From a virus (Duplodnaviria > Heunggongvirae > Uroviricota > Caudoviricetes): a DNA stretch of 64,000 bases. Position numbers and translations under genes: made by a program. Numbering within the stretch: position 1 is the first letter of the stretch; each line of letters begins with the position of its first letter. The stretch is from the IMG/VR virus record IMGVR_UViG_3300009709_000001, positions 317,336 to 381,335 of that record. One strand, written 5' to 3'. Below, in pieces: positions 4,253 through 36,884 of this stretch. The notes under the pieces were generated by a model, which had not been told where the DNA came from, did not search any database, and saw only the letters and a program-made list of their open reading frames with translations.

Positions 4253-4282
4253 CACAAACTCCTGAACTAATAGGTTGCATGC

Positions 4283-4311
4283 ATTGTAACGCATGCAAGA
4301 CGGTGTGTCAA
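4283..4311 (-). promoter_or_regulatory. sigma70-type promoter TTGACA-17-TACAAT
   Basis: Minus strand gcacTAATTGACAcaccgtcttgcatgcgtTACAATgcatgc; directly follows the stop of 4312..4731. Confidence 0.7.
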
Positions 4312-5093: not shown

Positions 5094-5394
5094 TATTGTT
5101 TTCCTCTGTGTAACCTAGTGCTTTCAACATATTATCGCACCATTGTTTCGATTCTTCTAGTGTTTCGCCCTCTAGGCCATAGCACCAATCGAGCCATTCA
5201 TCCCATTTATATTCGACGTATTTTCCACCGTCTTCAAAGTATCCGACATCCTCACGATGATATGCAGCACGGATTCGAACTCGAGGTGTCTTCTCGATAA
5301 GAGCGACACGAGTTTCTACACGGTCAGGATCGGCACCAGAAATAGTCCGAACTACGAAACCATCACATTGAATCCATGGGCTGATTTTTTGCAT
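5050..5394 (-). CDS. hypothetical protein (114 aa)
   Basis: ORF track; only ATG available is 5 nt downstream of a consensus -10 (leaderless layout). Confidence 0.55.
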   Translation of the reverse strand: MQKISPWIQCDGFVVRTISGADPDRVETRVALIEKTPRVRIRAAYHREDVGYFEDGGKYVEYKWDEWLDWCYGLEGETLEESKQWCDNMLKALGYTEENNNEKEDCRKVGESTS

Positions 5395-5399
5395 ACTTA

Positions 5400-5428
5400 A
5401 TTATATGTGAGTTCTCTGGAAAAGTCAA
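5400..5428 (-). promoter_or_regulatory. sigma70-type promoter TTGACT-17-TATAAT, ATG 5 nt after -10
   Basis: Minus strand aagTTGACTtttccagagaactcacaTATAATtaagtATGCAAAAA. Confidence 0.7.
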
Positions 5429-5600
5429 CTTGATTAAGAATAGTGTTTCGTCAATCAAGTTGTTGCCTAAAGGCAACACTTCTTCGAAAATGAAGAATTG
5501 GACGGCGTTTGACTCAAAAGTGTTGGTTCTGAGCAACAAAACGCTCTAATGTTTCAATGATTTTCGTTGTGATCTGATCAGATTTCGAATGAGTTTCGTG

Positions 5601-6176
5601 TCATTCTTCGTCATCAAATTTCGGCTTTGTAGTTCGGAAGAGGACCTCATATTCCATGTCTGATATCTGGCGCATCCTCTCATGTTTTTCGCATAAGACC
5701 TTGGTGCCGGGCATGTTTACCATTTTTCCGGGTGAACCACAATCTTCACAGATTCTTTTCGACATACTCTGCGCCATAAGCAGATAATAACCATGTTCGT
5801 CGGTGCCGTTTAACATACCGATTCTTAATGTACCGAACTTTTGACGAACGCTAGTAATGGTCGGAAGTTCAGCGCGGAATTCCTCTAATCTCTTTTCTTG
5901 TCCGATAATTAACTCTCGAAGGTTACCTGAATCCTTCACATCAGTCTTTTCGCATTCTTCTCGGTAATATTCAAGTCGATTTTCGACCTGCTGTACCTTA
6001 TGATAAATTGTTTCGAAAAAGGTTTCTAGAATACCTGCCCATCCCGGGCCAACTGCAAAATGATCTATATCTGATTTCTCGAATAGATAGGGCCATTGAA
6101 AGACAAAGGGTTCTATTTCTAGATCTGGAATATTATCAGAGCTCATATTGGGTAGATTTGGTAGACGATTAGGCAC
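5601..6176 (-). CDS. hypothetical protein (191 aa) with C-terminal Cys cluster
   Basis: ORF track (first codon GTG at 6176; alternative ATG at 6146); C-terminal CEDCGSPG...LCEKH. Confidence 0.55.
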   Translation of the reverse strand: MPNRLPNLPNMSSDNIPDLEIEPFVFQWPYLFEKSDIDHFAVGPGWAGILETFFETIYHKVQQVENRLEYYREECEKTDVKDSGNLRELIIGQEKRLEEFRAELPTITSVRQKFGTLRIGMLNGTDEHGYYLLMAQSMSKRICEDCGSPGKMVNMPGTKVLCEKHERMRQISDMEYEVLFRTTKPKFDDEE

Positions 6177-6272
6177 ATAGGCACGTTTTCTGTGCGGGAT
6201 TTTCCCGCAGGATTCCTGTGCAAGATTCCAAATCCTGCGTCCAAATCTGATCTGGAAATCTAGGTCAGAAAG

Positions 6273-6734
6273 TTACGCTAGAACTGGACATAGGATACTA
6301 TAGACCGGTGTCTTCTTTCCGTAGTTATAGAAGTTGTCTTTTGTATTCCCGAATTCTTTTGAATGAATTGGTGCATCTTTATTACTCGGGAACTTCGGGC
6401 CATTGAAATACATCTCATAAACTGCAGACATGATGCCAGTCTTACAGTTCATTACAACACCCTTCATCATGCTCGTGACCATAATTGTCTTACCATCGAC
6501 GTTAATGGTTGTAGGCTTGTCGAGTGTGATTAAAAAGTCGCCGCCCGAAATGACTGTATGGTCAACATAGGTTGCGATTAGTGTTGAAGAATCGAAATAG
6601 AGATGTTCACCATTCTTAGAAACAAGACCGTAAACTTCTTTCCATTCCGGTTCAGGAAAAATGAGACCGGCTGTAGCATAAATGCCGACAACAGCGAGAC
6701 CAAGGCAACATAAGATCTTATTCAGTTTTGACAT
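6273..6734 (-). CDS. secreted or membrane-anchored protein (153 aa)
   Basis: N-terminal hydrophobic segment ILCCLGLAVVGIYATAGLIF. Confidence 0.55.
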   Translation of the reverse strand: MSKLNKILCCLGLAVVGIYATAGLIFPEPEWKEVYGLVSKNGEHLYFDSSTLIATYVDHTVISGGDFLITLDKPTTINVDGKTIMVTSMMKGVVMNCKTGIMSAVYEMYFNGPKFPSNKDAPIHSKEFGNTKDNFYNYGKKTPVYSILCPVLA

Positions 6735-7059
6735 ACTTCTTTCTCACTCCATCGGCAATTTGAGCAACCGTTATATTTACATCGATACGCTCAATGACAA
6801 TACGATTGCAGGCCAACTTCATCAGCAATGCTTCACCCGGATCCATCTTGGCATGATAGATGGTAACCAAGCCTTCGTTGCTTCTATTTGCTATGTTTTC
6901 GATGCCGACCTTATATGCATCTTGCACCGTTTGTATGCGATATGGAATGTTTCTTTGTGTAAGGTAAACACCTACATCAAAGCCGTCTGTCCATGGCTCC
7001 AGAATTTTGTAATTCAGAAGGGCCACAGGCTCCGGAAAAAGTTCTTCACGTTCAGCCAT
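6718..7059 (-). CDS. hypothetical protein (113 aa)
   Basis: ORF track; co-directional array. Confidence 0.5.
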   Translation of the reverse strand: MAEREELFPEPVALLNYKILEPWTDGFDVGVYLTQRNIPYRIQTVQDAYKVGIENIANRSNEGLVTIYHAKMDPGEALLMKLACNRIVIERIDVNITVAQIADGVRKKYVKTE

Positions 7060-7355
7060 GGTCTATTTTTTAGAATTGTTACGCCATTGAACAGCATCTT
7101 GAGTGCTGTCATATCTTCATCATCACCAAGAATGACGAAGGTGTAAACCACATATTCGTATGTCCAATTTTCGGGAACTGTGGATCCGTAGGTTACAAAC
7201 CCTACCGCACGCTCAACCTTCTTTGGAATATAATCGAATGGGATCAGCTCTTGCGAGTAATCCGCACTTACACTATAGGCAATACCTTTGCCCTTAAGGT
7301 AAGTGACCATTTCTGTATCATCGCCACTATCAAGTGCAAAGGTAATCCATTTCAT
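7014..7355 (-). CDS. hypothetical protein (113 aa)
   Basis: ORF track; contains ILGDDEDMTALKMLF, a weak match to the EEDA-helix motif. Confidence 0.5.
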   Translation of the reverse strand: MKWITFALDSGDDTEMVTYLKGKGIAYSVSADYSQELIPFDYIPKKVERAVGFVTYGSTVPENWTYEYVVYTFVILGDDEDMTALKMLFNGVTILKNRPWLNVKNFFRSLWPF

Positions 7356-7570
7356 AGTTCTCTAATCTTTCCGGCTGTACAAGCCAATCTTAAGAAAAGC
7401 AATTCGTATTTGGTTAGTTCAACTTCATACTCGATAAACATAGTGAGTATCAAATCTTTTACGGTGCCACGCGAATTGGGTTTTTCTCGTTTCACACCGA
7501 GAAGAGCCAAAGTGGACTTTAGTTCTTCGTGGTGTGTATCTTCAATAATGATGTGGTATCTTTTCTTCAT
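7352..7570 (-). CDS. hypothetical protein (72 aa)
   Basis: ORF track; 4-nt overlap downstream, 1-nt upstream. Confidence 0.5.
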   Translation of the reverse strand: MKKRYHIIIEDTHHEELKSTLALLGVKREKPNSRGTVKDLILTMFIEYEVELTKYELLFLRLACTAGKIREL

Positions 7571-7890
7571 CAGGGTGTGGGTGGGAGGCCATCGACCTTA
7601 ACAGTGATCTTGACCTTGTGTCGTTCGTCTTGTGCTGCTTCTTCGGCAAGCTCTTCTTCTGTACGGGCACGGCGAATCTTCAGATGCTTCATGCCCAGAC
7701 GGAAAGTCAGTGCTGCCTCGGGGTCCATCTCGATAACAGATTCGAGATCGGAATAGCGAGGATCATCGGGATTAACAACCTTGTGCTTTTCGACAACGTT
7801 GTATTCTTCTTCGTTCAGGCGTTGGAGCACTTCATCGAATTTACGCTTATCGCCCTGTTCGTAAGTGAAGGTGTAGTTAGTCCAAGTCAT
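7570..7890 (-). CDS. hypothetical protein (106 aa)
   Basis: ORF track; 4-nt overlap with upstream gene. Confidence 0.55.
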   Translation of the reverse strand: MTWTNYTFTYEQGDKRKFDEVLQRLNEEEYNVVEKHKVVNPDDPRYSDLESVIEMDPEAALTFRLGMKHLKIRRARTEEELAEEAAQDERHKVKITVKVDGLPPTP

Positions 7891-18256: not shown

Positions 18257-19456
18257 TTACCTATTGTTTTGGGGCGAATGGTTGTCCGGCTCGTACCAAG
18301 CAGTCATACCAAACGGTGCGACCAGCCGTCGTTGCGTATCGCCGTGGATGAGGAACAGAGTGTCGCAGTAATTCTCGTCACCCCAGCTACCGCAAGGATA
18401 GCCGTCAGTCATCACGATGAAGCGTTCCGGCATCACATCATTTTCCTTCATGTAATCCCAGTTCACTGTGAAGTCGGTACCGCCACCACCCTTCAGATCG
18501 TAGGTATCGATGTCATCGATATTTTCCGGCGTAAAGATCTGCGGGTTGTAAACGCGAGTGTCGAATGTCCAAACGGTAAGCTTGAAGTCCATGAACTGTT
18601 CCATGATGCCCTTGACTTCGCCGAGCAAGTCACGCAGCATGTCTTCAGACATAGAACCCGATGCGTCAATTGCCACAGCGGCCTCGACACGTACATCTTC
18701 CTTCGTACCCGGCAGGTAGATGCCGCTCGACTGAGACTTACGCGAGCAGCGACTCCAGGTGAAGTCATTGCGAATCATCGACTGAATCTTCATGTTCAGG
18801 ATTTCACGCCAATCCATCTGCGGATTGGTCAAATCCTTCAGCATGCGCTTCACACCTGCAGGCACATTGCCAGCGCCAGCTGCCTTCGAAGCTTGCATCA
18901 CGGCAGCACGGATCTCGTCGCCCAGGATACGGCGTTCTTCCTCTGTCATCGGCTCACCCTTGCCATCGCCTGGCTCCAAGTGGATGTCGAATTCGGGGAA
19001 CTTCTGGCTCGGGTCCTTCATTAGGGCTTCGTACACTTCTTCAGCGAACATACCCTTGAACTTGGGATCGAAGCAGGCAGTCACACCAGATGTCTTGGGG
19101 TCGGGGATCTTACCGACACTGTTCTCGTGGAGTTCCCAGTTGATGACGTAGTCGGCAGCAGCGTTCCAAGCCTTCGGCTTACGCGAACCACGACGACCCA
19201 TGTGGTCATAGACGCAGTGTTCCACTTCGTGCGCAACCAAGAAAATCGTTTCTTGTTTGTTCAACTTCAGAATGAAGTTGCGATTGAAGTAGAAACTGCG
19301 ACCATCGGTGGCAGCAGTGGGGCACCAGCCATCGGGATCGTCGGTAGCGTCCTTCAGAATCAAGCGAGTGGCCAACGTGCCCCAGAACGGCTGTTGCAGA
19401 AGAAGAGAGATGCGTGCTCGCGTCAGCTGTTCAAATGCTTTTTCCTGATCGGTCAT
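18257..19456 (-). CDS. VWA-domain protein with N-terminal HExxH metallopeptidase-like region (MoxR partner, CobT-like)
   Basis: AHEVEHCVYDH (HExxH) and MIDAS AIDASGSMS (DxSxS); GC-rich; own promoter and hairpin. Confidence 0.8.
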   Translation of the reverse strand: MTDQEKAFEQLTRARISLLLQQPFWGTLATRLILKDATDDPDGWCPTAATDGRSFYFNRNFILKLNKQETIFLVAHEVEHCVYDHMGRRGSRKPKAWNAAADYVINWELHENSVGKIPDPKTSGVTACFDPKFKGMFAEEVYEALMKDPSQKFPEFDIHLEPGDGKGEPMTEEERRILGDEIRAAVMQASKAAGAGNVPAGVKRMLKDLTNPQMDWREILNMKIQSMIRNDFTWSRCSRKSQSSGIYLPGTKEDVRVEAAVAIDASGSMSEDMLRDLLGEVKGIMEQFMDFKLTVWTFDTRVYNPQIFTPENIDDIDTYDLKGGGGTDFTVNWDYMKENDVMPERFIVMTDGYPCGSWGDENYCDTLFLIHGDTQRRLVAPFGMTAWYEPDNHSPQNNR

Positions 19457-20418: not shown

Positions 20419-21405
20419 ATGGTAAATGTATTCTATAAGGAATTTCTAAAGATGAAGACACACAAATGCGAAAATATGACTTGCCAGAATAAATCCGAAA
20501 AGGATAAGTACGGCAATTATAAAAGATACTGCTCGGATGAATGCAAAAAGGTATCGAGATTATTAAAATTCAAAGAAACATATCAACATAAAGATATGGG
20601 TGCAATATTACAAAAACGAAAAGATACATTATTGTCTAAGTATGGTGTCGAGAACGCAGCATGTATATCTGAGGTCAAAGAAAAACTGCGTATAACCACT
20701 ACTAATACCGCGCAAATCCGCACAATAAAAACTAAAGAGACAAACTTAGCACGTTACGGCGTTGAGAGTACAAATTCCCTTGAGTCTGTTCAAGAGAAGA
20801 AAAAGCAAACCTTACTTGAAAGGTACGGCGTAGATCATCAACTTAAAATACCAGGAGTAGCTGCCGAAGTTTCGAAGAAGAATTCGGAAAATGCTAAGGA
20901 GCGACTAGTAAAGTCGAAGAAGACCAATCTTGAAAGATATGGATGTGAAAATCCATCTGCAAACGAAGATATCAAACTCAAAAGAACTGCAACTATGATT
21001 GAACGGTTCGGTGTAGAGAATGCATCGCAGAATGCTAAGGTTCAGTCGAAAAAAGTCAGGGCCGGCTTTAAGACTAAAAAATATACTTTCCCGTCCGGAA
21101 GAATAGACCATGTCCAAGGATATGAACCTTTGGCACTCAGTCAACTTTTACAGGAGGGATATCAAGAAAATGACATTATTACGCTTGATGAATTGATGCC
21201 GGAACTATGGTATCATGAATCGGATGGATCTAAGCGCAGATATTTCCCAGATATTTATATCCCGAAAGAAAATCTATTAATCGAAGTTAAATCCGAATAT
21301 ACTTATCGCGGATTTATTGGTTGGCTAATAACCAACCAATTAAAAGAGCAATGTGCCAGAGATGCTGGATTTAATTATCGACTAATGATAATGGTAAAGA
21401 AATAA
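20419..21405 (+). CDS. repeat-rich PD-(D/E)xK-like homing endonuclease candidate (328 aa)
   Basis: Five ~35-aa modules (KYGVENAAC, RYGVESTNS, RYGVDHQLK, RYGCENPSA, RFGVENASQ); C-terminal YFPDIYIPKENLLIEVKSEYT (D...ExK); AT-rich, antisense to the gene array; alternative start at 20452. Confidence 0.55.
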   Translation: MVNVFYKEFLKMKTHKCENMTCQNKSEKDKYGNYKRYCSDECKKVSRLLKFKETYQHKDMGAILQKRKDTLLSKYGVENAACISEVKEKLRITTTNTAQIRTIKTKETNLARYGVESTNSLESVQEKKKQTLLERYGVDHQLKIPGVAAEVSKKNSENAKERLVKSKKTNLERYGCENPSANEDIKLKRTATMIERFGVENASQNAKVQSKKVRAGFKTKKYTFPSGRIDHVQGYEPLALSQLLQEGYQENDIITLDELMPELWYHESDGSKRRYFPDIYIPKENLLIEVKSEYTYRGFIGWLITNQLKEQCARDAGFNYRLMIMVKK

Positions 21406-21483: not shown

Positions 21484-22710
21484 TCAGTCCTCGAGGATGA
21501 ACTTGCCGTACTTGTCGTGGAACGACTTGAACTGCTTCAGCTCACGGTGGTTGATCGGCAACGAATAGTCCCGCAGCGCGGTCTTGGCTCCCAGAACGAT
21601 CATCTCAGTCTGGAAGTTGTCCATCATGAACTTGAAGAAGTGGTCCACGCACTCGTGCCATTGCTTCATGTCGAAGCCGTCGCCATCGCCCTTGCCGTTG
21701 TTCTGCTTGGCCTTCAGCGACCATTCCTGCAGCGTGTAGCAGAGGCTGATGGTCAGCGAGTACATGGCAGACAGGTCCTTGACGTTCAGCGTCTTTTCCT
21801 TGCCCATCAGCACGTCTTCCGACTTCGGCATCTTCGCCGCAACGCGACGGTGTGCAGTGAACTCGGTAGCGTTGCCTTCACCGACGGTACCTGCCACGAG
21901 GGAGGTGTTCATCGATTCCGGCAGGCTGTCGCTGATCAGCTGGGACACGAAAGTCCAGGAACGCGGCGTAGCGAACGCCTTGTCCGGCGACTTCGGATCG
22001 AAGTCGAACAGCTTCTGCTTGTGGTGCGACAGGAAGCCCACAACGTCCGGGTGAACCTTGGCGCCGATCGCCCACTTCTGCCAGTCTTCGAAGTTCGAAG
22101 TCATCTCGATGTGAACCAGACGGTTTGCCAGCGGGCTGGGCATACGGTAGGTCACGCCCTTGTCGCTGTCGCGGTTACCAGCGCACAGCATGGACACGCC
22201 ATCGGGCAGGTGGTATTCGCCGACACGACGGTTCAGGATGAGCTGGTAAGCAGCAGCCTGCACGCTCGGAGGAGCAGCGTTGATTTCGTCCAGGAACAGG
22301 ATCGCGTTGCTCATGTCGTAAGCGGCGCGGATCGACAGGGCGTATTCGCGAGCAGTTTCAGCTTCTTCGCTGACGTCCTTCTCGTCGAACTTGGCCGCAG
22401 CGGCCTCTGCCTTCTCGACGTCCTTCTTCTTGATGGACTTCGGCAGGTCGGCAGGATGTGCCCACTTCATGGTCTTGGTCTCGACGTCGAAGTAGGGGAT
22501 GCCCTTGATGTCAGTCGGTTCGAGCAGCAGCAAGCGCATGTCGATCACCTTGCGACCGGCCTTTGCGCCGATTTCAGCGATCAGTTCCGATTTGCCAATG
22601 CCCGGGGGACCCCAGATCATTGCGGGGCGGCGCACTTCCATGCAGCGCTCCAGAAGAGTCTTGACGTCCTTCGGACGTTCTTGACGGGAAGTAGAATGAT
22701 TTGCAGCCAT
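21484..22710 (-). CDS. MoxR-type AAA+ ATPase (CobS-like, 408 aa)
   Basis: Walker A GPPGIGKS, Walker B ILFLDEINAA; GC-rich; own promoter and terminator. Confidence 0.85.
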   Translation of the reverse strand: MAANHSTSRQERPKDVKTLLERCMEVRRPAMIWGPPGIGKSELIAEIGAKAGRKVIDMRLLLLEPTDIKGIPYFDVETKTMKWAHPADLPKSIKKKDVEKAEAAAAKFDEKDVSEEAETAREYALSIRAAYDMSNAILFLDEINAAPPSVQAAAYQLILNRRVGEYHLPDGVSMLCAGNRDSDKGVTYRMPSPLANRLVHIEMTSNFEDWQKWAIGAKVHPDVVGFLSHHKQKLFDFDPKSPDKAFATPRSWTFVSQLISDSLPESMNTSLVAGTVGEGNATEFTAHRRVAAKMPKSEDVLMGKEKTLNVKDLSAMYSLTISLCYTLQEWSLKAKQNNGKGDGDGFDMKQWHECVDHFFKFMMDNFQTEMIVLGAKTALRDYSLPINHRELKQFKSFHDKYGKFILED

Positions 22711-22751
22711 GTGTTCTCCAGTTGGCGGGGTTAAAATTGCGTTGTGTCTGT

Positions 22752-22780
22752 ATTATGTCTGCATGCAACGAATGAGTCAA
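22752..22780 (-). promoter_or_regulatory. sigma70-type promoter TTGACT-17-CATAAT
   Basis: Minus strand gccgtTTGACTcattcgttgcatgcagaCATAATacag; ~40-nt leader with GGAGA before ATG 22710. Confidence 0.7.
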
Positions 22781-22806
22781 ACGGCAAATGCAGGTACTTG
22801 GGGAAA

Positions 22807-24128: not shown

Positions 24129-24881
24129 ATGCAAGAATTTAAACCAACATGGTTATACATAAAGAAACACAATATCACTGGTTTACAATATTTCGGTAAA
24201 ACAAATAGATATCATCCCGAGAAATATATAGGGTCTGGAAAATACTGGCTAGCGCATTTAAGGGTGCATGGAAAAGATATATCAACAACATGGTGTGAAC
24301 TATTCTTCGACCAGCAAACATTGGTAGAATATGCGCTTAAATTTTCAAAAGAAAATAATATAGCCGAATCAAGTGAATGGGCCAATCTTAAGTTTGAAAA
24401 CGGTCTTGATGGAGGTCACAGTGGCGTGGCAAGGAGCGATGAGACAAAGGAAAAATTATCTAAGAAAAATAGAGGAAAACGACATACAAAGGAAACCAAA
24501 AATAAAATTTCAGATTCCAATAAAGGTAAACATAACATGGTAAGACCTGCAGATGTCGGAGCCAAAATTTCGAAAGCACTGACCGGTAAAAAACGAGGTC
24601 CAATGCCAGATGAAACAAAAAGAAAAATTGGTGATGCAAATAAAGGAAAACCTTCATCAAAGAAGGGTATACCAATGCCAGATGAAACAAAAAGAAAAAT
24701 TGGTGATGCAAATAAAGGAAAACCTTCATCAAAGAAGGGTATACCTAGGTCAGCTATTGATAAAGATAAAATCAGAAAAGGCCAAGAAAATGTACCCGAA
24801 ATAACTTGCCCACACTGTCATATTTCAAATAAACCCGGATGTATGAAAAGATGGCACTTTGATAATTGTAAAAAGAAATAA
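24129..24881 (+). CDS. GIY-YIG-type (Seg-like) homing endonuclease (250 aa)
   Basis: WLYIKKHNITGLQYFGKTN; NUMOD3-like repeats (RSDETKEKLS, HTKETKNKIS, PMPDETKRKIG x2); C-terminal CPHC...KRWHFDNC zinc finger; AGGAGA RBS. Confidence 0.75.
   Translation: MQEFKPTWLYIKKHNITGLQYFGKTNRYHPEKYIGSGKYWLAHLRVHGKDISTTWCELFFDQQTLVEYALKFSKENNIAESSEWANLKFENGLDGGHSGVARSDETKEKLSKKNRGKRHTKETKNKISDSNKGKHNMVRPADVGAKISKALTGKKRGPMPDETKRKIGDANKGKPSSKKGIPMPDETKRKIGDANKGKPSSKKGIPRSAIDKDKIRKGQENVPEITCPHCHISNKPGCMKRWHFDNCKKK
24600..24744. repeat. perfect 72-bp tandem duplication (2 copies) inside the endonuclease gene
   Basis: caatgccagatgaaacaaaaagaaaaattggtgatgcaaataaaggaaaaccttcatcaaagaagggtatac at 24601-24672 and 24673-24744; duplicates 24 aa PMPDETKRKIGDANKGKPSSKKGI. 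Confidence 0.95.
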
Positions 24882-24903
24882 GGTGACTTAGTCACCTTAT
24901 TTA
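24879..24903. terminator. bidirectional hairpin terminator
   Basis: taaggtgac-tta-gtcacctta (9 bp); T-rich flank on the minus strand (tttcttttt), weaker (ttt) on the plus strand; lies between convergent genes. Confidence 0.65.
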
Positions 24904-24921
24904 GATTGACGTCAACTGGCT

Positions 24922-25545
24922 TTAGAAGAACAAGCCGCCGAATGCAATGCAGATAATCGTCAGGACGAGCATGACCCAGAAGCCAAGCCATTCGCCGTCG
25001 GTTTTGAGGTCGCCAAAGCTCTTCGGGATGCGAATCAGCTTCGTGCCCTTGAAGAATCCACCCAGGTACGAATATTCCACCTTCTCGTAACGGGCAGTGA
25101 ACAGGCGCTTGTAGATCACACGCACCATCGTCAGGCCCACCGTCAAGAAGATCACACCGTAGAGTGCCTTCATCAGCGCTGCACCAGCGACCTTCCAGAT
25201 GATGATCAGTGCGGTCAGCTTACCCGCGTCAGACTTGAGGAAGTCATTTATCGTGACATTCAGTTCCTTGGCTGCGATGCCCATGGCCTTGGCAAAGCCT
25301 TCGGCTGCGGCAGCGGCCTGTTGGCCCCAGGTTGCAGCGAGTGTCATTGTGGCACCCACATCCTTGGCGGGCGCAGCAGCATCGGCGACACCCTTGGCCT
25401 GTTGTGCGACGATCTGGGCAGCGTGTGCCTTCAGGTCTGCGATCTGGGCATCGGACAGACCCGATGTATCGATATTCGTGCTAGCCGCGAAAGAGGTTGC
25501 GGCGCACAGTGCGAGTGCCATACCGGCGATCATTTTGCGAAACAT
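24922..25545 (-). CDS. membrane protein with signal peptide (207 aa), GC-rich
   Basis: MFRKMIAGMALALCAATSFAAS; C-terminal TMs (LTALIIIWKVAGAALM, GVIFLTVGLTMV, LGFWVMLVLTIICIAFGGLFF); AAGGA RBS. Confidence 0.65.
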   Translation of the reverse strand: MFRKMIAGMALALCAATSFAASTNIDTSGLSDAQIADLKAHAAQIVAQQAKGVADAAAPAKDVGATMTLAATWGQQAAAAAEGFAKAMGIAAKELNVTINDFLKSDAGKLTALIIIWKVAGAALMKALYGVIFLTVGLTMVRVIYKRLFTARYEKVEYSYLGGFFKGTKLIRIPKSFGDLKTDGEWLGFWVMLVLTIICIAFGGLFF

Positions 25546-25583
25546 GGTTTTCCTTTCAGAACAAAGTTTTAACTGACAAATGC

Positions 25584-25613
25584 ATTATAGGGCCACCAGG
25601 GCCCTATAGTCAA
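25584..25613 (-). promoter_or_regulatory. sigma70-type promoter TTGACT-18-TATAAT whose spacer is a 9-bp hairpin
   Basis: Minus strand cagTTGACTatagggccctggtggcccTATAATgcatttg; tatagggcc/ggccctata stem spans the spacer and -10. Confidence 0.65.
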
Positions 25614-25641
25614 CTGAGTTTTACGTCAATTGGAACTGGTT

Positions 25642-26820
25642 TTACCAGTCGCTGCTGCCGGAATCGCTGCTGGAGCTGCTGCCGGAGTCGGACGAACCCC
25701 AGCTGCTGCCGCTGTCGCTGCTCGAACTGGACCAGCTGCTGGAACGGCTGCTGCTGTCGTCATCGTCACGGCTGGACGAATAGCTCGGAGCAGGGGCCGG
25801 CGCGTAGTACGGTGCAGGGGCGGGAGCCGGTTCCGGGGCAGAGCTGGAGCTGAACTCGGAAGTACCACCCCACTCGGCGTCGTCCTTGGCCGAGCTGCTG
25901 AAGGTCGGTGCAGGTGCCGTGATCACGGGCGGGGTGTACGTCGAAGCACTCGAACTGTAGTCACTGGTGCCCGAGGATTCCTCGCGGCGTCGACGAGTCA
26001 CAGTGTCATCATCATGACGATGACGGAGCGCATCGCTGATCATGTTGCCAGCAACCACACCACCTGCCACTGCCACACCCGTTTCCAGAGCCGACGGACC
26101 GGTATGGACCACGGTCGGAGGAACATAGGTGGGTGCCGGAGGAGCCGTATAGGTGCGCGACGGACGGGACCATGCAGCCGGGCTCGGTGCCGGAGGCGTC
26201 GAATAGGTGCTGCGAGTGGTACCCATACCGCTACTGGCCGTGGTCACAGAGGAGGGAGCCGAGGTAGCGGTTGCAGTCACAGGACTGGAGAAGTCGACGC
26301 CACCGTCTTCAGACTTGGTCCGGCGATACCAGTAGTAGCCCAGGCCACCCAGCGTGAACAGGAACAGCAGAACCAGGAACTTGGAACCGAACGAGCTGCC
26401 TTCATCGGCCGGCTTCGTTACCGCCACGGGTTGTGCCTGCACTTGAGGTGCAGCTTGGACGACCACGGGAGGAGGGGGCGGCACATAGGCCTGGACCACC
26501 GGCTGACGGGCGCCGGCGATGTCGCGTTCCATCTTGGCGAACAGGCGCGAACCGAGCACGTCACCCTTGTGATCGTATGCGCGGACGGCGTCCAGTTCAC
26601 GCTGGGCGAGATTGGGGTCTCGTTCCAGACACATGATCGTTGCCGCATTCAGCAGGTGAGCGCGAGCGCTATCCGGGCGCGACACCAGGATCTCATTCAC
26701 GTAATTGCGCGCTTGGGCGCAGTTGCCGTTTTCCAGGGCGGATTCGACCTGCTTCGGACTGGGGAGGGCCATTGCGGTCGCAGACAGCAAGGCAAGGGAA
26801 AGGGACAGAATACGCTTCAT
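25642..26820 (-). CDS. signal peptide + helical-repeat (TPR-like) domain + TM + Ser/Pro/Thr-rich tail (392 aa), GC-rich
   Basis: MKRILSLSLALLSATAMA; TM FLVLLFLFTLGGLGYYWY; tail ends SSSSDSGSSDW; AAGGAG 6 nt before ATG. Confidence 0.65.
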   Translation of the reverse strand: MKRILSLSLALLSATAMALPSPKQVESALENGNCAQARNYVNEILVSRPDSARAHLLNAATIMCLERDPNLAQRELDAVRAYDHKGDVLGSRLFAKMERDIAGARQPVVQAYVPPPPPVVVQAAPQVQAQPVAVTKPADEGSSFGSKFLVLLFLFTLGGLGYYWYRRTKSEDGGVDFSSPVTATATSAPSSVTTASSGMGTTRSTYSTPPAPSPAAWSRPSRTYTAPPAPTYVPPTVVHTGPSALETGVAVAGGVVAGNMISDALRHRHDDDTVTRRRREESSGTSDYSSSASTYTPPVITAPAPTFSSSAKDDAEWGGTSEFSSSSAPEPAPAPAPYYAPAPAPSYSSSRDDDDSSSRSSSWSSSSSDSGSSWGSSDSGSSSSSDSGSSDW

Positions 26821-26838
26821 GTGTAGCTCCTTGGGGGT

Positions 26839-26865
26839 GAAAACTGGGGCCCCGAAGGGCCCCAG
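26839..26865 (-). terminator. rho-independent terminator
   Basis: Minus strand ctggggccc-ttcg-gggccccag followed by ttttc, 3 nt after the stop of 26869..27966. Confidence 0.8.
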
Positions 26866-26868
26866 GGG

Positions 26869-27966
26869 TCAGATTGCAGCCATCCAGTCGTAGTTGGCGC
26901 GGCCGTACACCTCACGGGTGAACACCACGACCGTCTGCGCCGGCGTACCTTCGTCGACCACGTAAGTGAACGTACCCGCTTCCGGTTCGATGCGCTTCAG
27001 GTGCTTCGGATTCAGCTCCAGGGTGAAGCTGTCGTCCTTGTCTTCCGGGCAGCCGGCCGACTCGCCAACGCTGATGTTCAGCTCTTCGCTGGCCACCGGG
27101 CTTCCGCGCCACGTGTCGGGGTAGATGCGGTTGGTGTCGATCGCCTTGCCTTCGCGGATGATGCTGACCTTGTGGCGCATGCTGCTGTCGGCGAACGGTT
27201 TCGCGTTGAGCAGTTCCAGCACTTGGTGCGGCGTCTCGTTGTAGCGGTTCATGTCTTCGACCAGCGCCTTCAGCATGTCGAAGTTGAAGCTTTCGTACAG
27301 CATGGCCAGACGGCAGATCGTCGGGATGTGCGTCTTGTCGTTGAGGCGATCGTTGCAGTATTCTTCGATGAACGCTGCGTCGATGCCCTTGTACTCCAGG
27401 CAGTAGAAGACACGACCCGGCCGATTGCGCATGTGGCTGTTGACGCGGTACTTGTCGTTGCAGGTCAGGATGAACAGCTTCTTGCTCGGGAACACGCCGT
27501 CGAGCAGGGTCAGGATAGCTTCCTGTTCCTTTTCGCCGAACACCTTCTCGAACTCGTCGAACACGACCACGCACGGCTGGTTGATGTTCTGAATGAAGGC
27601 GTTGAAGCCGTCACCGCAGAAGTCGCTGTTGATGACCAGGACGGGCATGTTGTGCGCTTCAACCGCGTTCTTGGCGATGAGCTTGGCCAACATCGTCTTG
27701 CCCGAACCCTTTTCGCCGGTCAGCAGCACACCAGTGCTGTTCGGGCGATCGAGGAAGGTGCTCATGATGCGATCAGCACGGCCGTGGATGTTGCCGTAGA
27801 TCTTGCCGTCGATGTTGAAGTTGTTGATGGGCTTCAAGAAGAAGCCTCGGCCCGGCATTGCACCGACCGTGTACGTGCCCGGGGGCAGCGTCTCGTGCAT
27901 GTCGAGCGCCGCTTTCGGGGTGGGGAAAAACAAGCCGCCTTCGCGGGAGAAAATGGTGCTACTCAT
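26869..27966 (-). CDS. AAA+ ATPase (365 aa), GC-rich
   Basis: Walker A LLTGEKGSGKT, Walker B VVVFDEFEK. Confidence 0.8.
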   Translation of the reverse strand: MSSTIFSREGGLFFPTPKAALDMHETLPPGTYTVGAMPGRGFFLKPINNFNIDGKIYGNIHGRADRIMSTFLDRPNSTGVLLTGEKGSGKTMLAKLIAKNAVEAHNMPVLVINSDFCGDGFNAFIQNINQPCVVVFDEFEKVFGEKEQEAILTLLDGVFPSKKLFILTCNDKYRVNSHMRNRPGRVFYCLEYKGIDAAFIEEYCNDRLNDKTHIPTICRLAMLYESFNFDMLKALVEDMNRYNETPHQVLELLNAKPFADSSMRHKVSIIREGKAIDTNRIYPDTWRGSPVASEELNISVGESAGCPEDKDDSFTLELNPKHLKRIEPEAGTFTYVVDEGTPAQTVVVFTREVYGRANYDWMAAI

Positions 27967-28021
27967 CGCTTCTTTCTTGGTTGCGGGATAAATCCCTGGT
28001 TAAATTTGTTTAACAGTCTCT

Positions 28022-28050
28022 ATTTTATGCAGACGCGTGCGGTGACGCAA
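28022..28050 (-). promoter_or_regulatory. sigma70-type promoter TTGCGT-17-TAAAAT
   Basis: Minus strand cagTTGCGTcaccgcacgcgtctgcaTAAAATagag. Confidence 0.55.
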
Positions 28051-28056
28051 CTGATT

Positions 28057-28287
28057 TTATAGGTTGTAGTTTCTGATCCAGGAAGCCGTTTCTTCGTTGT
28101 CGGTATACAACATAATTTTCGAATGCGGATCGTAACCCTGCTTTTCGATAATATATGTTTTCGAATCAACGGAATCCTTCAGAGAGCGGAAGAAATCCGC
28201 CATTTCCAAAAGATTCTCCATATTGATCTGGCCAAAGTTGAAACCAAACTTGGCCTTCCGTGCTTTCACTTCAACAAAGACACTCAT
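28057..28287 (-). CDS. hypothetical protein (76 aa)
   Basis: ORF track; YTDNEETASWIRNYNL is a weak EEDA-helix match. Confidence 0.5.
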   Translation of the reverse strand: MSVFVEVKARKAKFGFNFGQINMENLLEMADFFRSLKDSVDSKTYIIEKQGYDPHSKIMLYTDNEETASWIRNYNL

Positions 28288-28364: not shown

Positions 28365-29192
28365 ATGAATACTCCATTTCTAAATAACAAATATACTGCC
28401 CGATATTATAAAATTATTAATACCGTTTTAGAATTAAATCGAAAGAAATTAAAAAGAAATAACCCTGATTACAGGTATTATGAATTGCATCATATTATTC
28501 CCAAATCATTAGGTGGTGACAATTCTTCTGCAAATCTTATACCTTTGACACCAAGGGAACATTATATATGCCACCTTTTACTCACCCGAATGACTGAAGG
28601 TAAAAATAGATATAAGATGCTCTGTGCATTCAACAGAATAACAAATAGAGGCCAGGCAGAAATTAAAAATTCTAGATTATATAATTCTATTCGAGAAGAC
28701 TTTTCGAAATCGCAGGCCGAAAATTATAAAGGTGATAAAAATCATTTTTATGGAAAGACTCACACAAAAGAAATCAGAGATTATTTAGCTGAGGTATGTC
28801 CACGATTCGGTAAAGATAATGGCAATTTTGGTAAATCATTATCTCAATCACAAAAAGATGCAATTTCGAAAAGTAATAAATCCAGAAAAATTATACCTCC
28901 ACCTCCGCAACTCGGTTCAAAAAATCATTTTTCTAAGATTTATAAAATAATCGACCCAACCGGTAATAAATTTACAATAAAATGCATGAGTGAATTTTGT
29001 GAAAGAAACAATCTTTGTAGTCGAACAATGATTTTATTTAAGGACAAAGGAAAAATTCCTGAATTGCAATTCGAACGAGAATATCGTGTAAAGAATCTCC
29101 AAGCAAAGAAGAACTGTGAAGGTTATTCTATTATTTCAATGACCTCGCCCCTTGGTCCTTTTCCATCAATCGACCATACAGTTACCGGATAA
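28365..29192 (+). CDS. HNH homing endonuclease (275 aa)
   Basis: LHHIIPKSLGGDNSSANLIPLTPREHYICHLLL; a 70-nt sample at the 5' end is 23% G+C by hand count; 3' end overlaps the macro-domain gene by 70 nt (convergent). Confidence 0.8.
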   Translation: MNTPFLNNKYTARYYKIINTVLELNRKKLKRNNPDYRYYELHHIIPKSLGGDNSSANLIPLTPREHYICHLLLTRMTEGKNRYKMLCAFNRITNRGQAEIKNSRLYNSIREDFSKSQAENYKGDKNHFYGKTHTKEIRDYLAEVCPRFGKDNGNFGKSLSQSQKDAISKSNKSRKIIPPPPQLGSKNHFSKIYKIIDPTGNKFTIKCMSEFCERNNLCSRTMILFKDKGKIPELQFEREYRVKNLQAKKNCEGYSIISMTSPLGPFPSIDHTVTG

Positions 29193-29626
29193 GTAACTGT
29201 TTCTTCAATAATGCTCTTAATTATATTCCACGAACCTCCGCCGAGGCCAGCACCAATAAACGGAATATGAATTTCCTTGGGTTGAAGATCTGCCATGCTT
29301 TCGAAGCCAGCATTTAGGTAATCCTCAACTTGTTGAAAACAAGTCTGAACTGCGTCATAACTTGTATGACGACCTGGACCACCAAACCCGTCTTGTGTCA
29401 CGGCATTCCAAATCTTGAGATTGATCGTTGCCAGAGATGGATATGCATTACCGAGTTTAAGCTTACCGGCTTCATATAGCTCACGGTAATCAAGATACAC
29501 ACTCGGATAAAGATTCTTGACTCCGAGCGCAACACCCGAACCCATCACACCTTGTGCGTTACAACCATGGACAATATGTCCGGCTGTGACATTGAACAAA
29601 TTACCGGTTTTGACTTGGATCTTCAT
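29123..29626 (-). CDS. macro-domain protein (ADP-ribose binding/hydrolase type, 167 aa)
   Basis: GHIVHGCNAQGVMGSGVALGVK and FIGAGLGGG. Confidence 0.8.
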   Translation of the reverse strand: MKIQVKTGNLFNVTAGHIVHGCNAQGVMGSGVALGVKNLYPSVYLDYRELYEAGKLKLGNAYPSLATINLKIWNAVTQDGFGGPGRHTSYDAVQTCFQQVEDYLNAGFESMADLQPKEIHIPFIGAGLGGGSWNIIKSIIEETVTYPVTVWSIDGKGPRGEVIEIIE

Positions 29627-31364: not shown

Positions 31365-32612
31365 TTAGCGCTTGTTGGTTGCTGCGCCGCCCTTGACCGA
31401 CAAGTCGATGCCCATTTCACGAGCAGTCTTTGCCGTCATCAGGTCCACCAGATCAGTTGCACGGCTGGCCGAACCACCCGAACCCGATGCGCCCATCACC
31501 ACTTGCGGGCTCCAAGCACCCGGTTGTGCCTTCTCGATCGCCGCTGCGTACAGGCCGTTGATCTTGACCAGCGCTTCCAGCTTCTTGTCCAGTTGACCGT
31601 CAGCTTCCATGACCAGGCGCTTGCGAGTTGCTTCACCTTCACCGCGCAGCACTTCAGACTTCTTGAACGCTTCTGCTTCCTTGACTTGCGCTTCCGCGAT
31701 CGTCACTCGAGCTTGGGCTTCAGCAATCGTCTTCGCAGCCAGGGTCTTTTGTTCCCATTCGGCCTTGGCAGCGTTTGCCTTACCTTGAGCTTCGGCAGTC
31801 AGCGTATCCTGGTCGGCCTTCTTCGCAGTTGCGATGGCCACCACAGCCGCGTTCGTTGCCGCCTGTTGTTCCTGAATCTGCTTCTCGACACGGTCCTCGT
31901 ACTTGAAGCCCGAGATCGTCATCGGCAGCATCTGCACGTTGTACTTCTGCACATAGCTGGCCTGAGCACGCAGCGGAGCACCCTTTTCATCCTTGATGAT
32001 CTCGGTGACCGTCATGTCCTTTTCCACACCAGCGATGTCCTTGGCACGAACCACCACGCTTCGCGTCTTGTAGACGCCGTTCAGCGTTTGATCGTTCATG
32101 ATCTGCAGGAGTTCGTTGCGACGACCAGCTGCCGATTCGAACGAAGTCATCGTCGGACCGGAGAAGGTTGCAGCCGATTCCATGGAGCGTCGGATGGCTT
32201 GCAGCTCGAAGGCTTCGGCCGAACGGAACTCCTTGTGGATCTCGATCACGTCTTTCGGCGTCAGGGGCATCAGCCACGAGATGGAGCCGCAGAGTGCCGC
32301 GTTACCGCCGTCATAGAAACGAATCGCCAGACCAGCGGATGCTTGCGCATGAGCTTTGTCAGTGTCGTTCTTGGCGCAGGCCGGGTCGATGAACTTCAGT
32401 TCGTTACGACGCGGGTACTTGGTGACAGTGCCGAAGCCTTGCCATTTCCAGCCCGGGTCGGTATATACCGCCAGTTCGCCCGACATCGGGCTTTGGATCA
32501 CCATGATCTCCGATGCATCCAGGTTCTCCACCAGCATGGGCGCCGAGATCATCAGGAACAGGGCCACGAAAGCGGCACTGCCGCCAATCAAAACACGTTT
32601 CAAGGACATCAT
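31365..32612 (-). CDS. SPFH/band-7-like membrane protein (415 aa)
   Basis: N-terminal TM GGSAAFVALFLMISAPML, ~250-aa domain, then a long Ala/Glu/Lys coiled coil; family assigned from overall pattern, not one motif. Confidence 0.55.
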   Translation of the reverse strand: MMSLKRVLIGGSAAFVALFLMISAPMLVENLDASEIMVIQSPMSGELAVYTDPGWKWQGFGTVTKYPRRNELKFIDPACAKNDTDKAHAQASAGLAIRFYDGGNAALCGSISWLMPLTPKDVIEIHKEFRSAEAFELQAIRRSMESAATFSGPTMTSFESAAGRRNELLQIMNDQTLNGVYKTRSVVVRAKDIAGVEKDMTVTEIIKDEKGAPLRAQASYVQKYNVQMLPMTISGFKYEDRVEKQIQEQQAATNAAVVAIATAKKADQDTLTAEAQGKANAAKAEWEQKTLAAKTIAEAQARVTIAEAQVKEAEAFKKSEVLRGEGEATRKRLVMEADGQLDKKLEALVKINGLYAAAIEKAQPGAWSPQVVMGASGSGGSASRATDLVDLMTAKTAREMGIDLSVKGGAATNKR

Positions 32613-32857
32613 TCCTTCTTCTCCAGTTGTGCCTTACGGCGGTTGATTTCATCCAGTTCTTCGCGAAGGTGAACGTATTCACGCGCTTCTTCGAGCTCGT
32701 GCTCGGCAGCGTCGACCTTCACCTTCTGCTCCGTATCCTTGCGGAAATTCGGGAAAAGAGGAGTGCCGTACGCCAGCGGCAGACCGACTTGGGTTACGAA
32801 TAGAATCGCAACGCCAAACAGGGCGGCCAAAATCAGCAAATCAAGCAAAACAATCAT
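32609..32857 (-). CDS. small TM + coiled-coil protein (82 aa)
   Basis: MIVLLDLLILAALFGVAILFV; AGGAGA RBS; stop overlaps the SPFH ATG (ATGA). Confidence 0.6.
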   Translation of the reverse strand: MIVLLDLLILAALFGVAILFVTQVGLPLAYGTPLFPNFRKDTEQKVKVDAAEHELEEAREYVHLREELDEINRRKAQLEKKE

Positions 32858-35618: not shown

Positions 35619-36884
35619 TTAGCCCTTGACACATAACACCTGCTTCAAGGTGTGTACAACCTTGACCAAGTCAGTTTGGCTGAGCATCACATCGTCAATG
35701 GACTTATAGGCTGCCGGACTTTCGTCAATCATGCCTTCGTCCTTACGGCATTCCACACCTGCAGTGGCCGCCACGTGTTCTTCAACCGTAATTTCCTTCT
35801 TTGCTTTGGAACGGCTCATCTTGCGTCCTGCACCATGGCTGCATGAGCAGAAGCTTTCAACATTACCCAGGCCTTCAACGATGAAGCTCTTTGCACCCAT
35901 CGAGCCCGGGATGATGCCCAACTCACCAGCTTGTGCGCTTACCGCGCCCTTACGAGTAACGATCACGTTTTCACCAAAGTGAACTTCTTCGTTGATGTAG
36001 TTGTGGTGGCAATTGATAGCTTCCTTCGTGATCTTGAAGACAGGAAGATGACGAGTCAGCGCCGTAATAACCAGTTCCAACATTGCGTCACGGTTGCGAC
36101 GTGCGTATTCCTGCGCCCAGCTCATTGCCTCGACATAATCGTCGTAATGTTGGCTACCTTCCTGCAAGTAAGCCAGATCCTTGTTCGGAAGAACAATCTT
36201 CTGTTCTTCAGCGTCTTTCTGTGCCAGCTCGATAAAGTAACGACCGATTGCATTACCAATGCCGCGAGAACCACTGTGGAGCATAATCCACACATCGTTG
36301 TTTTCATCGATGCACAGTTCGATGAAGTGATTGCCTCCGCCCAACGAACCGAGCTGAGTACGCGCCTTCTTTTCAGCGTCCTTGACCATCTTGTCGATGC
36401 CAGGATGCTTTGCAACGATTGCTTCCAGGCCAGTCTTCAGATTCTTGAACTGGTTGTTCAGAACGGTGCGTGTATTTTGATGACCCTTGCCATTCAAACG
36501 GTCGGTACTGTGTTCGTCGAACCCAACAGGCACCATCAATTCGATTTCGGAACGAACCTTGTGCAGATTGTCCGGAAGCTGATCAGCAGTCAAGCTGGTA
36601 CGACATGCAATCATGCCGCAACCAATATCAACGCCAACAGCCGCAGGAATTACAGTGCCGTGCGTTGCAAGCACCGTACCAACAGTAGAACCAGTACCAA
36701 CGTGTACGTCCGGCATCGCAGCCACGTGCTTAAATACAAAAGGCAGTTTGGTAATGCTGCGAAGTTGATCGATCGCGCCGGATTCGACGGGGACGTGCTT
36801 AGTCCACATTTTCACATCAACAAGGTCTCCTCGAATTAAATTATATGGGAGATATTTCTCATCATTAATATCTTCTTGCATCAT
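35619..36884 (-). CDS. rtcB: RtcB RNA 3'-phosphate ligase (421 aa)
   Basis: HSGSRGIGN, CHHNY and CSCSHGAGR motifs; full length. Confidence 0.95.
   Translation of the reverse strand: MMQEDINDEKYLPYNLIRGDLVDVKMWTKHVPVESGAIDQLRSITKLPFVFKHVAAMPDVHVGTGSTVGTVLATHGTVIPAAVGVDIGCGMIACRTSLTADQLPDNLHKVRSEIELMVPVGFDEHSTDRLNGKGHQNTRTVLNNQFKNLKTGLEAIVAKHPGIDKMVKDAEKKARTQLGSLGGGNHFIELCIDENNDVWIMLHSGSRGIGNAIGRYFIELAQKDAEEQKIVLPNKDLAYLQEGSQHYDDYVEAMSWAQEYARRNRDAMLELVITALTRHLPVFKITKEAINCHHNYINEEVHFGENVIVTRKGAVSAQAGELGIIPGSMGAKSFIVEGLGNVESFCSCSHGAGRKMSRSKAKKEITVEEHVAATAGVECRKDEGMIDESPAAYKSIDDVMLSQTDLVKVVHTLKQVLCVKG

Follow-up and report, generated by a model that had tools for sequence, protein, structure and literature searches.

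Iyer et al. (2021, PMC7824862) proposed jumbo-phage "BCS1 orthologues" as membrane-proximal assembly translocases, and the MoxR-vWA pair of group 2.2 jumbo phages, together with "BCS1-like" AAA+ proteins, as assembly chaperones. It is also known that codon usage differs between temporal classes of phage genes (2017, PMC5683454). Here we analyzed a stretch of 64,000 nucleotides (nt) from an IMG/VR virus record (IMGVR_UViG_3300009709_000001, positions 317,336 to 381,335), called the window below, in which three adjacent minus-strand genes form a G+C-rich block: they encode an AAA+ ATPase, a 392-amino-acid (392-aa) protein and a 207-aa protein (Table 1). The window comes from a jumbo phage of the Rak2/Atu_ph07 type that has not been cultivated, and its family-B DNA polymerase (58200-61151) shows 40-43% identity to those of Sinorhizobium phage Phosso, Agrobacterium phage Atu_ph07 and Klebsiella phage RaK2. 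A Joint Genome Institute (JGI)/Logan contig of 385,394 bp carries records of both the 207-aa and the 392-aa protein. For comparison, about 45 loci were fetched via the 207-aa protein and 80 via the ATPase, and these were then searched with the window proteins.

The window ATPase resembles the BCS1 orthologues of PMC7824862 in being a classical AAA+ protein of a group-2.2-type jumbo phage with MoxR and peptidase-vWA genes, and in having Bcs1 as its top structural match. Unlike them, it has neither an N-terminal transmembrane (TM) anchor nor a Bcs1_N match; its family may nevertheless be the one to which Iyer et al. gave the name BCS1 orthologues. Its homology to the PHROG 2376 family is full-length and includes the N-terminal beta domain, with 50% identity to gp160 of Microbacterium phage Pumpernickel, its best cultured-phage match, and 32-33% to phi92-like phages, in which phi92 gp190 is annotated as "ATPase or Zn metalloprotease". 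In those phages the gene stands among tRNA genes, or beside nrdD/nrdG and tRNA-synthetase-like genes, and a homologue of neither membrane protein is near. The Pumpernickel orthologue has tRNA genes around it, and genes for RtcB and an ADP-ribosyltransferase are close by.

Two further systems invite comparison. The bacterial FtsH-HflK/C and Psp modules, which serve quality control and stress responses of the inner membrane, also combine an AAA+ ATPase, an SPFH protein and small membrane proteins, and PspA stands beside the 392-aa family in two relatives. However, the window ATPase has no protease domain or TM segment, the membrane proteins are not homologous to the HflK/C partners or to PspB/C, and the window genes are dispersed and separately transcribed, so that the resemblance is thematic only. 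Compared with the codon classes of PMC5683454, the contrast here is extreme (GC3, the G+C content at third codon positions, of 0.65-0.86 against a median of 0.39) and limited to about 6% of open reading frames (ORFs). It is concentrated in chaperone and membrane-type genes.

Against this background, we consider it probable that the block consists of independent, codon-optimised core or accessory genes and is neither a cassette nor an island. Each of its genes belongs to an existing, uncharacterised phage family, and a codon bias of gene classes, already known as such, is unusually sharp here.

Codon usage and promoters of the high-GC3 genes

A preliminary description of this DNA had reported a G+C-rich block of three genes with the features of an AAA+ ATPase and of two secreted or membrane proteins. 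The ORFs and motifs were confirmed, and the G+C content of the block is 57-64%: 59.2% for the ATPase gene, 63.5% for the 392-aa gene and 56.9% for the 207-aa gene, with 43.2% for the whole window. The edges of the block are sharp, going from 0.30-0.40 outside to about 0.6 inside, and the flanking HNH gene has 31.6% G+C and a GC3 of 23%. Across the approximately 117 ORFs of the window the median GC3 is 0.39 (standard deviation 0.11), which places the ATPase gene about four standard deviations out. Its values at the three codon positions are 0.54, 0.38 and 0.86, so the excess is almost wholly synonymous. The 392-aa gene is also rich at the first two positions because its product is rich in Ala, Pro, Gly and Ser.

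A GC3 of at least 0.62 is found in only seven of the approximately 117 ORFs, and four of these seven lie outside the block. They encode a MoxR-like ATPase, its peptidase-vWA partner, an SPFH/Band-7 protein and a 222-aa product. Thus, the compositional shift tracks single genes and is not limited to the block, which looks like an island only because three such genes adjoin between endonuclease genes of 32-35% G+C.

In the seven high-GC3 genes the codons CTA, TTA, AGA, AGG, GGA, GGG, TCA, CCA, ACA, GTA and ATA are near zero. Their use is mostly 0-2%, reaching up to 10% for ACA and 4-5% for AGG, GTA and GGA in some subsets. Even the GC-rich rare codons GGG, AGG and CGG are avoided, and GAA is retained at 61-74%, together with substantial CGT and GGT. 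Such a pattern is that of highly expressed genes in G+C-rich proteobacteria. The shunning of rare GC-rich codons and the retention of GAA, CGT and GGT argue against plain G+C pressure and point to translational selection. In the orthologues of relatives the GC3 excess is graded, and the genes rise and fall together genome by genome. The MoxR gene has the top GC3 among the compared genes in nearly every locus (0.48-0.83), and the ATPase gene ranges from 0.36 to 0.86, covarying with the 207-aa gene. This graded, coordinated behavior is consistent with host-dependent selection on a fixed subset of genes and not with a recent import.

Directly upstream of five of the six high-GC3 transcription units we found a sigma-70-like promoter with a 10-11 out of 12 match; the sixth unit, that of the ATPase, has a weaker conserved site. 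The five promoters precede the 207-aa gene, the MoxR gene, the peptidase-vWA gene, the 222-aa ORF and a unit that begins with an 82-aa ORF (32609-32857, minus strand; 11/12 match) and includes the SPFH gene. This count includes manual operon assignment and one manual start codon. Of the remaining 109 ORFs, 8 have a promoter matching at 10/12 or better, and an automated single-ORF test gave weak enrichment at a threshold of 9/12 (p=0.11) and a modest one at 10/12 (p=0.018). The presence of sigma-70-type promoters in nearly all class members implies strong expression by the host machinery.

Long antisense ORFs lie opposite three high-GC3 genes (27001-28062, 25630-26826 and 21517-22734, all on the plus strand; 353, 398 and 405 aa); they arise as a by-product of the GC3-rich coding. 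Because the Logan gene caller took the 353-aa one for the gene, its record does not contain the actual ATPase protein.

Taken together, we propose that the block represents three adjacent, independent genes in a conserved jumbo-phage region and would form no dedicated three-part system. The first would encode a soluble AAA+ ATPase of PHROG 2376 that acts as a protein unfoldase or remodelling chaperone. The second would be a sporadic accessory gene for a bitopic inner-membrane protein, made by read-through past a hairpin, and the third would supply a clade-conserved inner-membrane protein from its own strong promoter. The block would be G+C-rich because its genes use host-style preferred synonymous codons. 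The whole class (the trio and the genes for MoxR, peptidase-vWA, SPFH and the 222-aa product) presumably favours the codons preferred in a G+C-rich proteobacterial host, a possible clue to the host, which might, on a slight indication, belong to the Burkholderiales. The class may be a chaperone and inner-membrane maintenance set; in relatives, PspA adjoins the 392-aa family. Such a set could keep the cytoplasmic membrane and the proteome working during a long jumbo-phage infection, or could provide a membrane-proximal assembly platform. The signal singles out a small class of genes, recognisable from sequence alone and probably highly expressed, and it points to the chaperone and membrane-associated genes in which the jumbo phage appears to invest most.

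Several points weigh against this reading. Translational selection on the high-GC3 genes is deduced from the codon pattern, and the codon classes were drawn from a single window of 64 kb out of a contig of about 385 kb. Several low-GC3 genes are likewise preceded by sigma-70-like promoters, and the promoter-like site of the ATPase gene is weak in this genome: its -35 element matches at only three of six positions, which is why it fails the scanner criteria. In most relatives the ATPase gene is followed directly by the 207-aa gene, with no middle gene, so a functional link is possible. Finally, the term membrane-maintenance set comes from domain annotations and gene neighbourhood.

Arrangement and products of the block

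The promoters and hairpins that had been described as punctuating the block were found, and they are conserved in relatives. In L020 and L022 the ATPase promoter site reads TTGC[GA]T-17-TATAAT. A G+C-rich hairpin lies directly 3' of the ATPase stop codon and directly 5' of the ribosome-binding site of the 392-aa gene, and it is kept in L020 and L022 with compensatory stem changes. It had been claimed as a strong terminator (26839-26865). The hairpin is real, but it is followed by only four T, for which reason the terminator scan missed it, and it would act either as a partial terminator or by stabilising the mRNA. There is no promoter between it and the 392-aa gene, which, without a promoter of its own and behind the hairpin, is therefore probably expressed by read-through.

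The promoter of the 207-aa gene carries in its spacer a 9-bp palindrome, TATAGGGCC-CTGGT-GGCCCTATA. Promoter and palindrome are conserved in L020 and L022, and a variant is present in L013. At the other end of this gene, the hairpin that had been taken for a bidirectional terminator (24879-24903) has negative z scores on both strands, but its T-run is clear on the minus strand only. It overlaps the stop codon of the convergent GIY-YIG gene.

Short, G+C-rich spacer palindromes were noticed in several sigma-70-like promoters of the clade (TAGGGCC-CTGGT-GGCCCTA, TGCATGCA): at 25584-25613, about 22760-22790 and about 4283-4311 in the window, at 6760-6790 in L013 and at about 8835-8865 in L020. A regulator of the phage or of the host may use them as an operator. 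As a repeat, the motif CCAGTT..TTGACGT after two stop codons was not above chance in the window and is better read as a promoter -35 region.

Table 1. Positions of the block genes, their putative control elements and other genes of the window
Feature	Positions	Strand	Basis
Classical-clade AAA+ ATPase, 365 aa	26869-27966	-	PF00004 and PHROG 2376; GC3 0.86
392-aa protein, predicted bitopic membrane protein; sporadic accessory gene	25642-26820	-	ORF, hydrophobicity, alignment A2; GC3 0.69
207-aa protein, predicted inner-membrane protein; clade-conserved	24922-25545	-	PHROG 19575, alignment A1; GC3 0.70
Promoter-like site of ATPase gene, TTGCGT-17-TAAAAT	28022-28050	-	Read from sequence, conserved in relatives
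G+C-rich hairpin, 9-bp stem, TTCG loop, then TTTT	26840-26865 (stem 26865-26844)	-	-22.4 kcal/mol, z -3.2
Sigma-70-like promoter of 207-aa gene, TTGACT-18-TATAAT	25584-25613	-	11/12 match
12-bp hairpin closing 207-aa gene	24876-24902		z -4.9 on minus strand, -5.6 on plus strand
MoxR-like AAA+ ATPase	21484-22710	-	GC3 0.79
SPFH/Band-7 protein	31365-32612	-	GC3 0.69
222-aa ORF	3626-4294		GC3 0.68
DUF2201_N metallopeptidase and vWA-like protein, MoxR partner	18257-19456	-	GC3 0.65
NUMOD3 homing-endonuclease-like gene (context only)	24129-24881	+	Pfam NUMOD3, E=7e-14; 35% G+C
HNH/NUMOD3 homing-endonuclease gene (context only)	28365-29192	+	Pfam HNH and NUMOD3 just below gathering; 32% G+C

The ATPase matches Pfam PF00004 over residues 80-186 (47.4 bits, cutoff 21.2) and PHROG 2376 over residues 8-279 (E=5e-92, profile positions 5-280 of 363). 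Its motif columns were checked in alignment A3 of 37 homologues. The columns of Walker A (GEKGSGKT in TGEKGSGKT, residues 84-91, 27694-27717) and Walker B (VVVFDE in VVVFDEFEK, residues 133-138, 27544-27573) are invariant. The same holds for sensor-1 N170 and for the motif R182-P-G-R185 (27412-27429), which aligns to the RPGR of p97. In the pore-loop-like F116-C-G118-D119 (within 27601-27630; consensus PFxGD), G118 and D119 are invariant. Judged by sequence, the ATPase thus bears every mark of the classical AAA clade.

An AlphaFold2 model (predicted local distance difference test, pLDDT, 78) divides the ATPase into an N-terminal beta domain (1-58), an AAA module (about 76-255) and a C-terminal beta-rich part (260-365). 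Foldseek ranked Bcs1 (8t14_A) first in the PDB (E=1.7e-7), at a TM-score of only 0.41 and with FtsH and YjoB nearly equal; by sequence, p97, NVL and YjoB come out best in the PDB. No hydrophobic segment was found across the 365 aa, hence no N-terminal TM anchor, and Bcs1_N (BCS1_N) was absent among the Pfam matches at E<=0.01. For these two reasons, we did not file the protein as Bcs1. Since all motifs of an active substrate-threading ring are present, the ATPase is most likely a ring-forming protein unfoldase or remodelling chaperone. The family is very widespread, with at least 486 IMG/VR viral contigs and 395 deposited phages, ranging over phi92-like, phAPEC8-like, Herelleviridae, CBB/BF jumbo and crAss-like phages and an actinophage.

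In another group of phage contigs (L073, L086, L090, L095, L096, L120 and L126; about 5190-7600 in each) a protein of about 720-777 aa is encoded after the ATPase orthologue. Its N-terminus, MILNNAPVNEAVLSNVGEIGEFRIRNSAKAFNILS, may resemble that of rIIA, which is a membrane-associated protein in T4.

The 392-aa protein begins with a hydrophobic, signal-like segment (residues 4-22), followed by a TPR-like region of about 90 aa (26491-26760) and a Pro-rich linker. A TM segment (residues 142-162, about 26311-26385) leads into a Thr/Ser/Pro-rich region, a Gly-zipper-like AVAGGVVAG and an RRRR. The Ser/Asp/Trp-rich tail is 38% Ser and ends in SSSSDSGSSDW. TPR_16 matched below its gathering cutoff (17.6 bits, cutoff 32.7; E=0.005), and homologues match TPR_19, TPR_2 and TPR_8 at 20-25 bits, just short of those cutoffs, with TPR_16 matches that are also below threshold; the domain has no more than one or two hairpins. 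The predicted topology is a cleaved signal, a periplasmic TPR-like domain, a TM segment with basic residues, and a disordered, acidic cytoplasmic tail. This architecture is well conserved among the 89 proteins of the family (alignment A2). YgcG/TPM or DUF2076-type proteins have an extracytoplasmic domain, one TM segment and a Gly/Ser-rich tail ending in Trp. The family shares this overall architecture, and some members are labelled "membrane protein YgcG" by JGI. In contrast to TPM proteins, however, the N-terminal domain is a TPR-like hairpin, and the DUF2076 matches (22.3 bits, cutoff 38) rest on the low-complexity tail.

Members of the 392-aa family also occur in L048, L049, L053, L060 and the T4-like contig L024, the last without the ATPase. 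Source-named members come from Burkholderia anthina and Limnohabitans. A search of 185,579 species genomes gave one match, in Pararobbsia silviterrae, where it stands between two genes for DNA methylases, a context resembling a prophage; this is therefore not a common bacterial gene. PspA/IM30 genes stand directly beside the family in L048 (3240-3908, 121 bits) and L053 (6311-6964, 50.7 bits; cutoff 33.9), a neighbourhood suggestive of a connection with inner-membrane stress.

In the 207-aa protein, a signal-like N-terminus precedes an Ala-rich helical periplasmic region, a long hydrophobic helix (about 106-149), a conserved basic beta-hairpin loop (149-185) and a C-terminal TM segment (about 182-207). 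Both of its ends would face the periplasm and the conserved loop the cytoplasm. It matches PHROG 19575 over residues 2-201 (E=1.6e-20, profile positions 2-193 of 199). There are 235 homologues at 58-80% identity, and the superfamily falls into 957 clusters at 50% identity, with lengths of about 170-230 aa for almost all members that are full-length. Because the AlphaFold2 model has a pLDDT of only 64, its BFVD matches, uncharacterised proteins of phages Noxifer and ACP17, only confirm family relatives. When the phage collection was searched by tblastn with the 207-aa and 392-aa proteins, neither was matched, probably owing to divergence and to the filtering of low-complexity sequence; distant phage relatives nevertheless came up in the PHROG and BFVD searches.

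As had been predicted, two of the three products appear from their hydrophobic segments to be inner-membrane proteins, a localisation that is well supported for both. Superinfection-exclusion, holin and antiholin families gave no named match to either protein in Pfam, PHROGs or NCBIfam. The PADLOC defence search yielded only P-loop-level matches of the ATPase (E>=2e-4) and none for the other two, and NCBIfam returned nothing meaningful for the block proteins. The earlier remark that no described system has this composition agrees with the searches of Pfam, PHROGs, NCBIfam and PADLOC, which produced only generic or unnamed matches. The roles suggested earlier, in superinfection exclusion, envelope remodelling or lysis timing, are conjectural. 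For functional work, the analysis offers as candidates an AAA+ ATPase that is very widespread in phages and two families of uncharacterised membrane proteins.

Linkage, import or conversion

Among the alternatives, the one that survives best, although we regard it as unlikely, is that the three products form one membrane-anchored AAA+ machine, with the ATPase ring docked on the loop of the 207-aa protein and/or the tail of the 392-aa protein. It would be a split Bcs1/FtsH-like translocase or extractor at the inner membrane, serving superinfection exclusion, lysis timing or membrane-proximal assembly. Gene order speaks partly for it. The order in the clade is RtcB ... SPFH ... macro, (small ORF), (ATPase), (392-aa family), 207-aa, p223/p113, MoxR, peptidase-vWA. 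The ATPase and 207-aa orthologues are syntenic in dozens of related contigs, at identities similar to those of flanking genes, a sign of vertical inheritance. The ATPase gene is immediately upstream of the 207-aa gene in most clade loci, and a gene of the 392-aa family, where present, usually comes right after the ATPase gene (window, L020, L022, L049, L053, L060). Moreover, the best structural neighbours of the ATPase, Bcs1 and FtsH, are membrane-anchored AAA proteins, both membrane proteins have conserved cytoplasmic segments, and the codon class is common to all three genes. In other phage lineages, too, the ATPase gene adjoins the gene of about 720 aa whose product is putatively rIIA-like.

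However, promoters are separate and hairpins lie between the genes, and the genes part company readily. The trio is together in three phages only, the window, L020/21 and L022/23, which speaks against a fixed three-gene unit. In L014/L037, L017 and L033 the 207-aa gene directly follows the macro-domain gene with no ATPase gene within about 7 kb; L015 also has no ATPase gene, and L031 and L032 show the 207-aa gene after the macro-domain gene with only 1.4-2.8 kb of upstream sequence. Conversely, L049 has the ATPase and 392-aa family genes and no 207-aa gene. Across about 66 non-redundant ATPase loci, a 207-aa gene is downstream in only 8 and a non-membrane gene in 43. Two distant members of the 207-aa superfamily have unrelated neighbours, and the 392-aa family stands alone in the T4-like contig and the prophage-like region. 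The ATPase occurs in phi92-like, Herelleviridae and crAss-like phages and an actinophage, none of which shows these membrane genes. The three genes thus appear, by arrangement and distribution, to be independently gained, lost and transcribed.

A looser version, which we likewise hold only tentatively and think improbable, is a dispersed, co-regulated inner-membrane and proteostasis kit. It would comprise the ATPase, the 207-aa protein, the TPR-TM-Ser-tail protein, SPFH, MoxR/peptidase-vWA and in some phages PspA, with host-optimal codons and host-type promoters. The ATPase would act at the membrane via the 207-aa and/or 392-aa protein, stabilising or remodelling the cytoplasmic membrane while infection proceeds.

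Still less credible is a recently acquired island from the host or another G+C-rich genome that has retained the donor composition. The sharp G+C boundaries and the homing-endonuclease genes on both flanks suggest such an event at first sight, as do the best cultured-phage match of the ATPase, in a phage of the actinobacterium Microbacterium, and the presence of 392-aa family members in Burkholderiales records. But the sharpness of these edges comes from the AT-rich endonuclease insertions, and the ATPase and 207-aa orthologues are syntenic in many related phages at neighbour-like identities, only the 392-aa gene being variably present. The confinement of the ATPase excess to the third codon position and the avoidance of GGG, AGG and CGG also argue against import, and the same pattern is seen in four non-adjacent genes and in relatives without the flanking endonuclease genes. 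As for the 392-aa family, its sole match among the species genomes is in a prophage-like setting. Of the earlier suggestion that the block is host-derived or under different constraints, the second half thus fits the translational-selection codon signature, and the first, a foreign or host unit, is contradicted by vertical synteny and by the GC3 excess elsewhere. Within the block only the 392-aa gene looks like a mobile accessory gene, and its acquisition alone is plausible. The case guards against taking every compositional island in phage genomes as horizontal transfer.

Recombination with, or homing-endonuclease co-conversion from, a G+C-richer related phage is very improbable: two homing-endonuclease genes do flank the block and the GC3 of its genes exceeds that of most relatives, but L020, L022, L013 and L004 have the same elevated GC3 without endonuclease genes at these sites, the MoxR, SPFH and peptidase-vWA genes share the bias, as does the 222-aa ORF, which has no flanking endonuclease, and neither the block nor bases 1-24000 had a megablast match in the phage collection, which has no DNA of at least 85% identity.

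Flanking endonucleases and neighbouring genes

Independent, codon-optimised genes being the preferred reading of the block, its surroundings are described here as context. The gene downstream of the block (24129-24881) has a GIY-YIG-like N-terminus when read by eye; no GIY-YIG Pfam domain was detected. In relatives, the stop codon of the 207-aa gene is followed by a TTGAC[AG]-N17-TA[TC]AAT-type promoter of the next gene (L020 8826-8915, L022 8579-8670, L004 8613-8716). In the window only the -35 part is left at 24903-24921 (CCAGTTGACG; TTGACG at about 24909-24914), and next to it lie the hairpin and the convergent NUMOD3 endonuclease gene, which apparently was inserted into the promoter of the next gene.

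On the other side, a homologue of the HNH/NUMOD3 gene occupies the same position in L026 and L029. The macro-domain gene (29123-29626, minus strand) overlaps the HNH gene by 70 nt at its 3' end and belongs to the same conserved region as the gene for RtcB RNA ligase (35619-36884, minus strand).

The 222-aa high-GC3 ORF was considered as a PspA; it had no Pfam match. The genes for MoxR and the DUF2201_N peptidase-vWA protein are a few hundred bases apart in relatives; in the window, four small ORFs and a homing-endonuclease gene on the plus strand (20419-21405) lie between them. The SPFH/Band-7 protein (415 aa), encoded 3.4 kb from the ATPase gene, is 94% identical to its L020 orthologue.

Inside the NUMOD3 endonuclease gene, a perfect 72-bp tandem duplication (24600-24745; 2.0 copies, 100%) doubles a 24-aa segment containing NUMOD3, and its perfect match suggests a very recent event.

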